Assembly (NCBI GenBank): GCA_964016885.1 | Contig: OZ024741.1 | Location: 34,658,001-34,722,000 of the forward strand | Reading direction: 5' to 3' | Length of the DNA: 64,000 bases | DNA from: Eledone cirrhosa | Taxonomy: Eukaryota | Shown: one piece after another, positions 41,843 through 54,302 of the stretch | How the letters are laid out: each line of letters starts with the position of its first letter | Position numbering within the stretch: the first letter of the stretch is position 1 | The notes under the pieces: model-generated | Told to the model about the DNA's origin: nothing | The model's input: only the letters and a program-made list of their open reading frames with translations | Databases searched by the model: none | Program-made: the position numbers and the translations under genes

Positions 41843-41885
<43 letters not shown>

Positions 41886-41887
<2 letters not shown>

Positions 41888-42338
41888 TTCTTTATTGGTC
41901 ACAGGGGCACAAAAGAAGGGGACAAATACAAAGGGGGAAGTTTACATACAATAAAAACGTGTAGATAGATAGATAGATTTCTTTATTTGCCGCAAGGGCG
42001 TGCAAGAAATGAGACATTACACGACATGGTACGGCGGTGGTTTTACAATGAAGCGTGTAAATAAATCTAACAATTATAAATATGCAATCGAAATCCCCAA
42101 TAGTGAGGGGTTGTTTTACACCGCGTAGATAGACTAACCCTCAACACCGAGAGCATGTTTTGTAAGTTCTCCCGTCTTCTGTAAGTTCTCTTGTGTTCTT
42201 CAACCTACAGGTTTATATACAGAGTAGGCCCATCCACTCCGGCCATTTTCGCCACATTCACCCACCTTTCAGCGAATTTACTAGGATGCAACCCCCACCC
42301 TCACCTTCCTTTTAAAATGGTATTTGAAAAGGGAGAGG
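41886..42338 (-). mobile_element. Two 5'-truncated Tx1-like 3' ends (41886-41962 and 41978-42338)
   Basis: Both end AATAAAGAAAT followed by (TATC)n; the second encodes FKYHFKRKVR..ERWVNVAKMAGVDGPTLYINL, homologous to the ORF2 C-terminus. Confidence 0.8.
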
Positions 42339-42399
<61 letters not shown>

Positions 42400-42458
42400 A
42401 ATAGTTAGATAGATAGATAAATAGTTATATAGTTAGATATAGATAGATAAATAGATAG

Positions 42459-42489
<31 letters not shown>

Positions 42490-42749
42490 AATAGACAGAT
42501 AGATAGATAGATAGATAAATTTCTATTTATTTGCCACGAGGGCACAAAAGAAGGGGACATTTACACAGTGGGGGAGTTTACATAAATCGAGTAAAGAAAA
42601 AAGGAATAACAATAATAATATAACAATAAAAAGTCCTCAAAAGGGAGGGGGCGTGTTGGGGATTGCACATACCCCCGAAAAGTGTGCAACTCTTTTCGCG
42701 GGGGAAGCCCAGAGAGGAGGCGCTCCCCCTTTCCTCTTCACTTCTTCAC

Positions 42750-51929: not shown

Positions 51930-51962
51930 GTGGTCGGCAGAGCCAAAGGCGAGTGTAGAGAC

Positions 51963-53864
51963 CTACCTTTCCGCTTCCCGGGGTTCGGGTTGCACGACTT
52001 CCATGGGGTCGGGGGTGTTGGGTGAAGGGGTGTCTTGTGGTGGTGTGGGGTCGTCAGTGTGTGGTGGGGTTGGGGTGTTTGGAGTTGTGTTGGGGAGGGG
52101 AAGGGGAGGGGGAAAGCTTTTTAGTAGGACGCGGTTTATGGGTTTGACAGAGGGTGGTCCTACGTCCTCCTTAAAATCCTTTTTTAGTTTTTGGTAGAGG
52201 TTCATTGGGATCTTTATTAATTTTAAATGTGGGTAGTTTTCTGAAGAAACAAAGTTTACACCTTCGGTTTGTACCGAAGGATTATTGTATATGAGTTCAT
52301 TTAATTTATTATTGTTTCTGTTGATGTAAGTATAGTGTAATGTCTTTTTTTCGGATGGTGTGAGCGTTTCGAAGAGGGGAGGGGCAGGTTTGGTTTTGTT
52401 TGTTGCTGGAGGGGTGTTTTCTGTTTTGTTGGATTGTGTTGAGATTTGGGTGGGGGTTGTTTGGCCTTGTGTGTTTTGCACATGTTTTCTTTTTTTCCTT
52501 TTAATCTGTCTGAAGGACTCCGTTTCTTCCTCCGAATTCGTTGGGTTATCTTCAGTGTTGGAGGGAAGAGGTATGTTTGCTGGTAATGTTTCCGTGTTGG
52601 TTTTCTTTGTGGGGGAGATGGATGTCACTATGTTAGACTGTGTTGTGTGTTGTGTCTGCGGTGGTTGTGTTGTTTTATTGAGTGAGAGGTTGGGTGGGCC
52701 TGTATTTTGTTTTGGGGTAATGTGTTGTGACTGTTTGTGCTGTGGTGGTGGTGTGGTTTTACTGAGGGTCGGGTTGGGTGGGACTGAGTTTTGTTGTTTG
52801 TTTATCTGTTGTGGTGGTGGTGGTGGAGCTGGTGTTGGTAGCAGGGTTTTCTTTTTGTTGAGTTGGGGACAAGCGGCCTTCAGGTGCCCTCTGCCTGCAC
52901 AGATATGGCAGGACGGCCTTCTCCCCTCCACGCTAATGTTTATATACCCGTGGTCCTCTAATAGGATTCTGTCGGGTATTTGGGCGATGCGTTCAGGCTT
53001 CATTTGCACTACCAGCTTTATACCTGTTCCACTGAACGCATTGCCTGTGGTTTTCTCAATGGAAATCACGTTGTCATTCACTGGATCGATGAAGCCAGCT
53101 ATGAGCCAGCAGTAGTCCACATCTGGCATCATTGCATCCAGCCATATGCGTTGAGTTCTTTTACCCATATAAGATGGATAAAAGGTAAAATTTTTCGAAC
53201 GAATCGGTGACAAAGCACATTTTTTTGCCGCCGATTCGTTCTTCATGATAATTGCTAGGCTTCCATACAGTCTGTCTTTTCTTATGAAAGTGGTTTCATT
53301 AAGTACTTCTGTGAGTACTGTTTTGATATCTGCTTGAGAAGGCTGTTCAGGTTTTTTTGTACTGTTGTTGATGGTCCGAAACTTGACCGTTCGGCTTTCA
53401 ATGTCTTTGGTGAATTCTTGAGGCATTTTTACCGATAAAATACCATTCTCTCCTTCACTTATGTATTGTTTGGCGTCTGTGATCCTTCGTGCCACATCTG
53501 AAATATTTTCCGGTACATAAGTCAAAGATTTCTTTGTTTTCTGTGCAAATGAAATCTTGTCGTCTGCTTTGCTTTCTGTTATGGTGTTATTTTCAAATGT
53601 TATTTTTGTGTTTGTTGTGTCTTTGTTTGTGTTATTAGTATTGTCATGCAATTTTTCAAATTTTTTTTTTTCGTTGTTGGAATCCATGTCCAGATTTGTG
53701 TTTTCGTCATTTTTTTTCTCCGCAGATTCGTCTGTTTTTATTTTAATTTTTCCTTCCTTCTCTATGACGTTAGTTGGGAAGGAAGGGGGGGGGACTAAAG
53801 CGTACGAGCTTACAACTCTTACCGCTGTCCCCCCACCACTATTTTCGTTCGCTGCGTTTAACAT
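51963..53864 (-). CDS. Tx1-like ORF1
   Basis: CHICAGRGHLKAAC knuckle; shares FIRKDRLYGS, FYPSYMG and ERIAQIPDRI with copy A. Confidence 0.88.
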   Translation of the reverse strand: MLNAANENSGGGTAVRVVSSYALVPPPSFPTNVIEKEGKIKIKTDESAEKKNDENTNLDMDSNNEKKKFEKLHDNTNNTNKDTTNTKITFENNTITESKADDKISFAQKTKKSLTYVPENISDVARRITDAKQYISEGENGILSVKMPQEFTKDIESRTVKFRTINNSTKKPEQPSQADIKTVLTEVLNETTFIRKDRLYGSLAIIMKNESAAKKCALSPIRSKNFTFYPSYMGKRTQRIWLDAMMPDVDYCWLIAGFIDPVNDNVISIEKTTGNAFSGTGIKLVVQMKPERIAQIPDRILLEDHGYINISVEGRRPSCHICAGRGHLKAACPQLNKKKTLLPTPAPPPPPQQINKQQNSVPPNPTLSKTTPPPQHKQSQHITPKQNTGPPNLSLNKTTQPPQTQHTTQSNIVTSISPTKKTNTETLPANIPLPSNTEDNPTNSEEETESFRQIKRKKRKHVQNTQGQTTPTQISTQSNKTENTPPATNKTKPAPPLFETLTPSEKKTLHYTYINRNNNKLNELIYNNPSVQTEGVNFVSSENYPHLKLIKIPMNLYQKLKKDFKEDVGPPSVKPINRVLLKSFPPPLPLPNTTPNTPTPPHTDDPTPPQDTPSPNTPDPMEVVQPEPREAER

Positions 53865-54099
53865 TTCTGTTAGACGATTGAAATTTGTTTGCCACAAAAT
53901 TTTTTAAAACAGGTTTTTCACCTCTAGGAGGGGTAAAGATGAGCTGACCCACCGCCTGACAGTTCAGACGGGGGTCAAGCTACACAATTGTATCAAAATT
54001 AAGTTTGAACTCACAAAATTTCCTCAATAAATTTGAACAAAACTTCTGCGCGAAGTGAATTACATCCACACTGTAGAACAGACGACAGCTAGATTATAT

Positions 54100-54145
54100 A
54101 AATAAATAGATAGATAGATAGATAGATAAATAGTTAGATAGTTAG

Positions 54146-54199
<54 letters not shown>

Positions 54200-54257
54200 A
54201 TAAATAGATAGATAGATAGATAAATAAATAGATAGATAAATAGTTAGATAGATAGAT

Positions 54258-54302
<45 letters not shown>
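54100..54302. repeat. (GATA)n microsatellite
   Basis: Seen directly in the sequence. Confidence 0.9.

Follow-up and report, generated by a model that had tools for sequence, protein, structure and literature searches.

A LINE lineage of Eledone cirrhosa that accumulates in GATA repeats, with a probable change of 5′ joining in its youngest branch

A 64,000-nucleotide (nt) stretch of the Eledone cirrhosa genome (assembly GCA_964016885.1, contig OZ024741.1, forward-strand positions 34,658,001 to 34,722,000; hereafter the window) contains a train of four long interspersed nuclear elements (LINEs) embedded in a GATA repeat. The four copies lie between positions 41885 and 54095, all on the minus strand and with nothing but GATA runs, perfect or slightly degenerate, between them; their shared orientation and GATA spacing had been described in the initial annotation of this DNA. 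Read from the elements' 5′ side, their order is B, A, C and D, and the repeats between them carry no strand assignment. An imperfect GATA array (54096–54302) precedes B and includes the 5′ copy of its target-site duplication (minus strand, 54098–54116; 18–19 base pairs (bp), non-repeat bases included), whose TATT interruptions recur in the 3′ copy near 48252–48270. Element B itself (48271–54095) is a full-length 5.8-kb LINE of the second subfamily, with its first open reading frame (ORF1) open. The GATA array that follows (48223–48270) comprises both the 3′ copy of B's duplication and a TATC run of fixed phase at the 5′ end of element A, a full-length 5.7-kb LINE of the youngest subfamily (42518–48222). 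As had been noted, A has two open frames on the minus strand, ORF1 (46184–48061, 625 codons stop to stop) and ORF2 (42750–46250, 1166 codons stop to stop), the former overlapping the frame of the latter. A second imperfect GATA array (42340–42517) separates A from C (41976 to about 42339), a 5′-truncated and diverged copy of which the final 28 ORF2 codons and the 3′ untranslated region remain; a spacer of 3.5 GATA units (41962–41975) then leads to D (41885–41961), a 3′ stub of about 75 bp from a third subfamily whose copies are mostly 5′-truncated, and the train ends with (GATA)10 at the 3′ end of D (41845–41884). A further, long GATA array in the window, delimited as 39317–39408 or 39317–39444, adjoins no element of the A–D lineage.

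The four elements terminate in AATAAA(G or TAG)AAAT with no poly-A tail, in agreement with the initial annotation, although not directly on the repeat as stated there: one variable base (C in two of the elements, T and A in the other two) stands before the first TATC. The divergence between them was also correctly noted, and pairwise identities (A and B, 82% over 4.3 kb; D and either A or B, 82–83% over about 70 bp; C and A, 77% over 84 bp) raise the count from at least three subfamilies to four.

ORF2 of element A runs from an APE endonuclease through a reverse transcriptase (RT) to a C-terminal CCHC motif, and keeps the conserved motifs LNARG, CESR, GDWNG, YLDR, SDHK and YADD. The A proteins match the Pfam families PF03372, PF00078 and PF13966, with no Pfam match to an RNase H family. 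ORF1 carries one CCHC zinc knuckle (C-x2-C-x4-H-x4-C), for which the zf-CCHC match (E = 0.019) stays below the cut-off, together with a Pro/Thr-rich linker. ORF2 of B is interrupted by one in-frame stop and one frameshift; over 670 codons its protein is 84% identical to that of A, and since the codon differences fall mostly at third positions (190, vs 82 and 55 at the other two) both A and B were active lineages. The best relative of A ORF2 with a solved structure is human LINE-1 (L1) ORF2p (profile E value 9e-120; 404 bits vs 135 for R2), and the L1 endonuclease is the first match of the predicted A endonuclease structure, a model of low confidence (predicted local distance difference test score, 53); the nearest named protein, among the very few that homologue searches gave, belongs to Argonauta hians (68% over the RT region). 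The duplications described below are of a size typical of APE LINEs, and the knuckle in ORF1 sets A apart from L1. Copies of L1 are mostly truncated and end in poly-A, and its target is weak and T/A-rich. By its two ORFs, its APE, RT and CCHC domains, its target-site duplications and its 5′-truncated copies, whose 3′ ends are intact, the A–D lineage is an APE-type non-LTR (long terminal repeat) retrotransposon of the L1/Tx1 group. A CCHC zinc knuckle in ORF1 is a feature of the Tx1 clade, to which the motif in A conforms, and this anatomy makes membership of that clade likely.

Copies were collected across the 3.0-Gb genome that contains the window. All 40 scored matches to the last 379 bases of A, among 2,241 candidates, were 100% identical, and the youngest copies are more than 99% identical; an exact 25-mer from the A 3′ end is found 634 times and an exact 20-mer from the 5′ end 568 times. 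Both ORFs are kept at full size in 15 of 57 full-length A copies. Copy A had been singled out as a candidate source of a targeted-integration enzyme: its open frames stand, its special status does not, as it is one of hundreds of near-identical copies whose target is dispersed and multi-copy rather than a single site. Copies of B are about 98.5% identical to the one in the window, those of D mostly 90–98% identical among themselves, and the best relatives of C 73–83% identical, none of the 39 other matches exceeding 83%. An assignment of D to the short interspersed nuclear elements (SINEs) was ruled out, D copies extending into ORF2. L346, L351, L352, L353, L357, the upstream element of L348 and L001:1900–1950 revealed a sister subfamily, which shares about 94% identity with A beyond position 388 but has a different 5′ end, and a further 5′ variant. 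In the four junctions seen, these new 5′ ends likewise follow TATC within 1–2 bases. These variants suggest swapping of 5′ ends within the A lineage. A public sequencing run labelled as a second species holds 171 bases identical to the 3′ end of A.

The placement of these copies points almost without doubt to the GATA/TATC repeat as the target of the lineage. One base and then TATCTAT directly follow the 3′ end of A in 564 of the 634 exact copies, and chance is excluded as a source of these junctions because, with both strands of the window counted outside the elements, only 44 of 102,958 positions (0.04%) start TATCTAT. In the sampled copies the 3′ flank begins with TATC in 58 of 59 A, 40 of 45 B and 28 of 30 D, and at least 7 nt of repeat follow in 36 of 45 B and 27 of 30 D. 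In each of the A, B, D and C-like sets one sequence type accounts for more than 20% of the flanks, the mark by which PMC4494074 recognizes a target-specific Tx1 family. In this regard, the proposal that a GATA repeat is the LINE target is upheld, whereas strict specificity for arrays is not: the target is a short core, TATC or sometimes TATA or TATT, for which the preference is strong, and a lone TATC serves as the site in L230, L176 and L167.

The repeat could instead be a 3′ tail encoded by the element itself, with trains arising as new copies land in old tails. The sampled 3′ ends do all start with TAT or nearly so (132 of 134 A, B and D copies), and the RNA may end in 1–3 bases matching the target, as the first 1–3 post-element bases of L129 and L104 are missing from the 5′ copy of the duplication. 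We nevertheless consider this origin very improbable. Truncated copies with no GATA repeat at their 5′ junctions were the observation that the initial annotation had set against targeting; among 30 truncated B and D copies, TATCT stands at the 5′ junction in 24 and at least 8 nt of TATC repeat in 18, compared with 121 (4.7%) and 12 (0.5%) of 2,574 background windows. No complete repeat unit follows the element in L082, L090 and L095. The duplications bear on the question most directly. A copy was taken as informative where its 3′ flank leaves the repeat within 12 nt, non-repeat bases then being sought at the 5′ junction, with mismatched pairs of 5′ and 3′ flanks as control. Duplications containing non-repeat bases were found in 5 of 10 informative full-length B copies (16–19 bp; control 3 of 150) and in 8 of 19 informative truncated B or D copies (12–20 bp; control 13 of 551), that is, with L229, a full-length B copy with a later break and a 21-bp duplication, a range of 12–21 bp and, for B and D pooled, a frequency of 13 of 29 against a control of 2%. 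As these duplications contain non-repeat bases, the 3′ repeat is host DNA; in L080, L167, L176 and L230 they contain unique bases and start right at the first TATC. Duplications of this kind are also present in the B copy of the window and, with 16 bp, in the truncated A copy L349. On one contig, the B copies L228 and L229 have an identical 5′-flank ending, which is duplicated on the 3′ side in L229 only; the upstream flank of L228 may have been inherited from its source copy.

Several observations weigh against a strict reading of the target. Six of the 30 truncated copies have neither TATCT nor at least 8 nt of repeat at the 5′ end, no duplication was found in 16 of the 29 informative B and D copies, and B is also found in pure (TA)n (L220 and L238). 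The C-like copies are more loosely placed: among 28 readable ends (2 of 30 having been dropped, the end motif being absent), 22 start with TATC, 12 with at least 7 nt and 8 with at least 12 nt of repeat, and 6 do not start with TATC; both decay with age and a looser ancestral enzyme fit this set. A (TC)n 3′ flank was seen in three A-like copies only (L240, L351 and L358). As to how widely this target is used, no run of at least three TATC/GATA units was found in 80 distant metagenome relatives (24–44% identity), a weak negative given that many of their contigs end before the 3′ end of the element. No empty allele was recovered, four public runs at the 3′ junction of the A copy L010 giving no joint at a flank that is itself a high-copy repeat. 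At L010:1434–1490 this flank forms one end of a repeat of very high copy number, which begins at a TA and, we presume, resembles a DNA-transposon terminal repeat.

Random insertion followed by survival only in microsatellites would also place copies in repeats, and passive accumulation of this kind near CA repeats has been proposed for Waldo-A and Waldo-B of Drosophila in PMC3812793. In the present case it is hardly conceivable: the youngest copies, those more than 99% identical, show the strictest placement, exact to the base and with a single orientation, and selection would fix neither phase nor strand.

Taken with the junctions of A described below, these data make highly probable a pile-up of LINEs in (TATC)n with 12–21 bp duplications, an endonuclease likely nicking the GATA strand and, in A, a likely TATC leader in the RNA that fixes the 5′ junction. 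The first nick would fall after GATA on the GATA strand, the duplications beginning at the first TATC; the 3′ end so exposed would prime reverse transcription of an RNA ending in AATAAA...AAAT-N, with no poly-A. The second strand would be cut some 12–21 nt downstream with no sequence preference, in keeping with duplications of that size and with mixed ends. As each insertion leaves repeat on both sides, the site stays a target and, the target fixing the strand, later copies stack head to tail in same-orientation trains. A neighbour of the same lineage and orientation stands next to one end of 40 of the 57 full-length A copies (28 upstream, 27 downstream), and at L362–L363 three tandem A copies, 99.7–99.9% identical, are separated by identical 68-nt imperfect spacers. 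The four-element train of the window is an ordinary example of such a pile-up.

The youngest subfamily differs from the others at its 5′ end. In 544 of the 568 exact A 5′ ends the element is preceded by CTATC in one phase (CTATC-TTGATAG), and in 493 of the 568 by three full units. The 5′ flank ends with TATC in 57 of 57 full-length A copies vs 2 of 16 full-length B copies (p = 3e-13) and 2 of 30 truncated copies, B junctions showing mixed duplication ends and a few extra bases. Truncation is rare in A: 38 of 39 and 19 of 20 copies in two sample sets were full-length, and truncation within about 1.6 kb affected 1 of 30 A vs 7 of 29 B copies (p = 0.026). From its junctions, we consider it probable that the RNA of family A is headed by a (TATC)n leader annealing with the target. 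Transcription of A would begin ahead of the unique 5′ end, by a few TATC units, and the finished complementary DNA would then end in (GATA)n and pair with the cut top strand, trimming of the unmatched overhang producing the invariant junction; such annealing would also account for the rarity of truncation. The first 227 nt of A fold better than shuffled sequences (z = −3.2) with no recognizable structure, and a search for a ribozyme at the A 5′ end gave no Rfam match near the gathering score. The first bases of A form, with the upstream repeat, an inverted repeat (TCTATC-TT-GATAGA, window 48218–48229) that could fold into a hairpin at the 5′ end of an RNA.

The same fixed phase might arise with no leader, if targeting is real but in A the second nick falls after a TATC near the first nick and arrays were already long upstream. 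The 5′ runs of A cluster at 20–28 nt, some are only 8 nt long, and duplications spanning the break are mostly missing in full-length A, all of which such a scheme accommodates. We regard it as unlikely. An ordinary 16-bp duplication is present in the truncated A copy L349, a single case, and one of 20–21 bp in the full-length copy L243. Such a second nick cannot account for L051 and L052, where a 20-bp duplication is accompanied by 11–12 extra nt of TATC, nor for L361 and L240, where (TCTG)n or (TC)n makes up the 3′ flank and a perfect TATC island of 12–16 nt stands at the 5′ junction only. B, the close relative of A, also speaks against the scheme: the ends of its duplications are mixed, and it can do without an upstream run (L230). 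A recent segmental duplication as the origin of the pair L051 and L052 is unlikely, for they differ at 9 positions, more than L051 does from unlinked copies.

Some points nonetheless count against an RNA leader in A. Several A 5′ runs are only 5–9 nt long, shorter than a full duplication plus leader, and trimming or slippage must be assumed to explain them. The lower frequency of break-spanning duplications in full-length A (3 of 20: L243, L051 and L052) than in B and D copies (13 of 29; p = 0.035) speaks for a leader, with the reservation that five copies of the A set had been chosen because their 3′ flank breaks early or their 5′ end is variant, and that the difference was not significant before these were added (p = 0.09–0.19); two apparent A duplications (L044 and L050), artefacts of a downstream A copy, were scored as absent. 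The full-length share of family A is only approximately 90% (568 5′ ends, 634 3′ ends), since the two counts come from different exact words and a sister subfamily whose 5′ end differs is included in the 634. Moreover, both the nick position and the leader are read from junctions only. With these points in mind, a leader remains the preferred explanation of the A junction, and a change of the 5′ joining mechanism in the youngest branch is probable.

A comparable pattern is known from another clade. For the melanogaster-type R1A elements, the invariant 5′ junction of full-length copies was explained by Stage and Eickbush through upstream target sequence in the RNA; in some copies further upstream target follows a duplication, the truncated ones show ordinary duplications, and sister lineages keep the ancestral mode (PMC2718515). 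Family A, set against B and D, repeats the junction pattern described there: the invariant junction is seen in 544 of 568 ends, the truncated-copy class comprises one copy (L349) and the class with duplication plus extra target two (L051 and L052). R1A differs in belonging to another clade and in using a single site in the 28S ribosomal DNA, whereas the A–D target is a dispersed tetranucleotide repeat; R1A insertion also makes a precise 9-bp deletion, whereas the net change caused by A is unreadable inside a repeat.

Microsatellite targets have been listed for Waldo (ACAY), Mino (AC), Kibi (TC), Koshi (TTC) and Dong (TAA) in PMC3812793, and crocodilian Tx1 families are described as targeting (TTCC)n/(TTTC)n in PMC4494074. 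Kibi, Koshi and the crocodilian families are likewise APE-type LINEs inserting into microsatellites, with the target read on the same pyrimidine-containing strand, and differ from the A–D lineage in target, the TATC unit being absent from the target lists given in these two papers. With TATC at the 3′ flank of nearly all sampled A copies (58 of 59), the lineage is neither Kibi nor Koshi by target. By analogy, it may be said to resemble Kibi and Koshi in target choice and R1A in 5′ joining. Further Tx1 targets are reported in Repbase and in non-open journals. Duplications of 10–20 bp are given as typical of APE LINEs in PMC6895275, which serves otherwise, like PMC8869645 and PMC5340908, as context. 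In Octopus vulgaris, 13 recently active L1-Tx1 families with 421 tabulated near-full-length insertions have been annotated (PMC13282606, 2026); in the main text of that annotation a term search found neither "target" nor "GATA". We found no GATA-targeting LINE in our searches of the open literature, Repbase and non-open journals being beyond reach, and the supplementary target alignments of PMC4494074 may bear on novelty.

Relative to the published lists of microsatellite LINEs that were examined, GATA/TATC is thus a new target unit. On balance we lean towards a still-active lineage whose endonuclease cuts GATA repeats and whose youngest branch has acquired an RNA leader, an arrangement that would give homology-guided insertion of 5.7 kb, full-length in nearly every case, would represent a separate invention of the device of R1A and R2, and would make the lineage a net builder of GATA arrays. 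The pair formed by A and B, which share a target and have 84% identical ORF2 proteins and yet differ in 5′ joining and truncation frequency, offers a comparison within one genome in which a long-open question, namely which factors govern 5′ truncation and the priming of the second strand in APE-type LINEs, becomes testable with few variables. Near-complete insertion of a full-length 5.7-kb element is a property wanted in RNA-based gene insertion, although the large number and dispersal of GATA repeats, together with the leaky preference, mean that no single-site tool is at hand. The lineage may also influence how many GATA arrays the genome has and how long they are, and may confound GATA markers.

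Other repeats in the window include a SINE-like repeat of about 200 bp, present in many diverged copies and in places as head-to-tail arrays with a period of 206–214 bp; its copies lie at 782–945, 4538–6080, 9325–9546, 10599–11219, 11887–12129, 33663–33869, 40945–41177 and 61924–62295. Minisatellite arrays occupy 1088–1626, 6248–7509, 17036–17497, 26602–26775 and 30982–32115, with periods of 31, 37, 91–93, 49 and 49, respectively.

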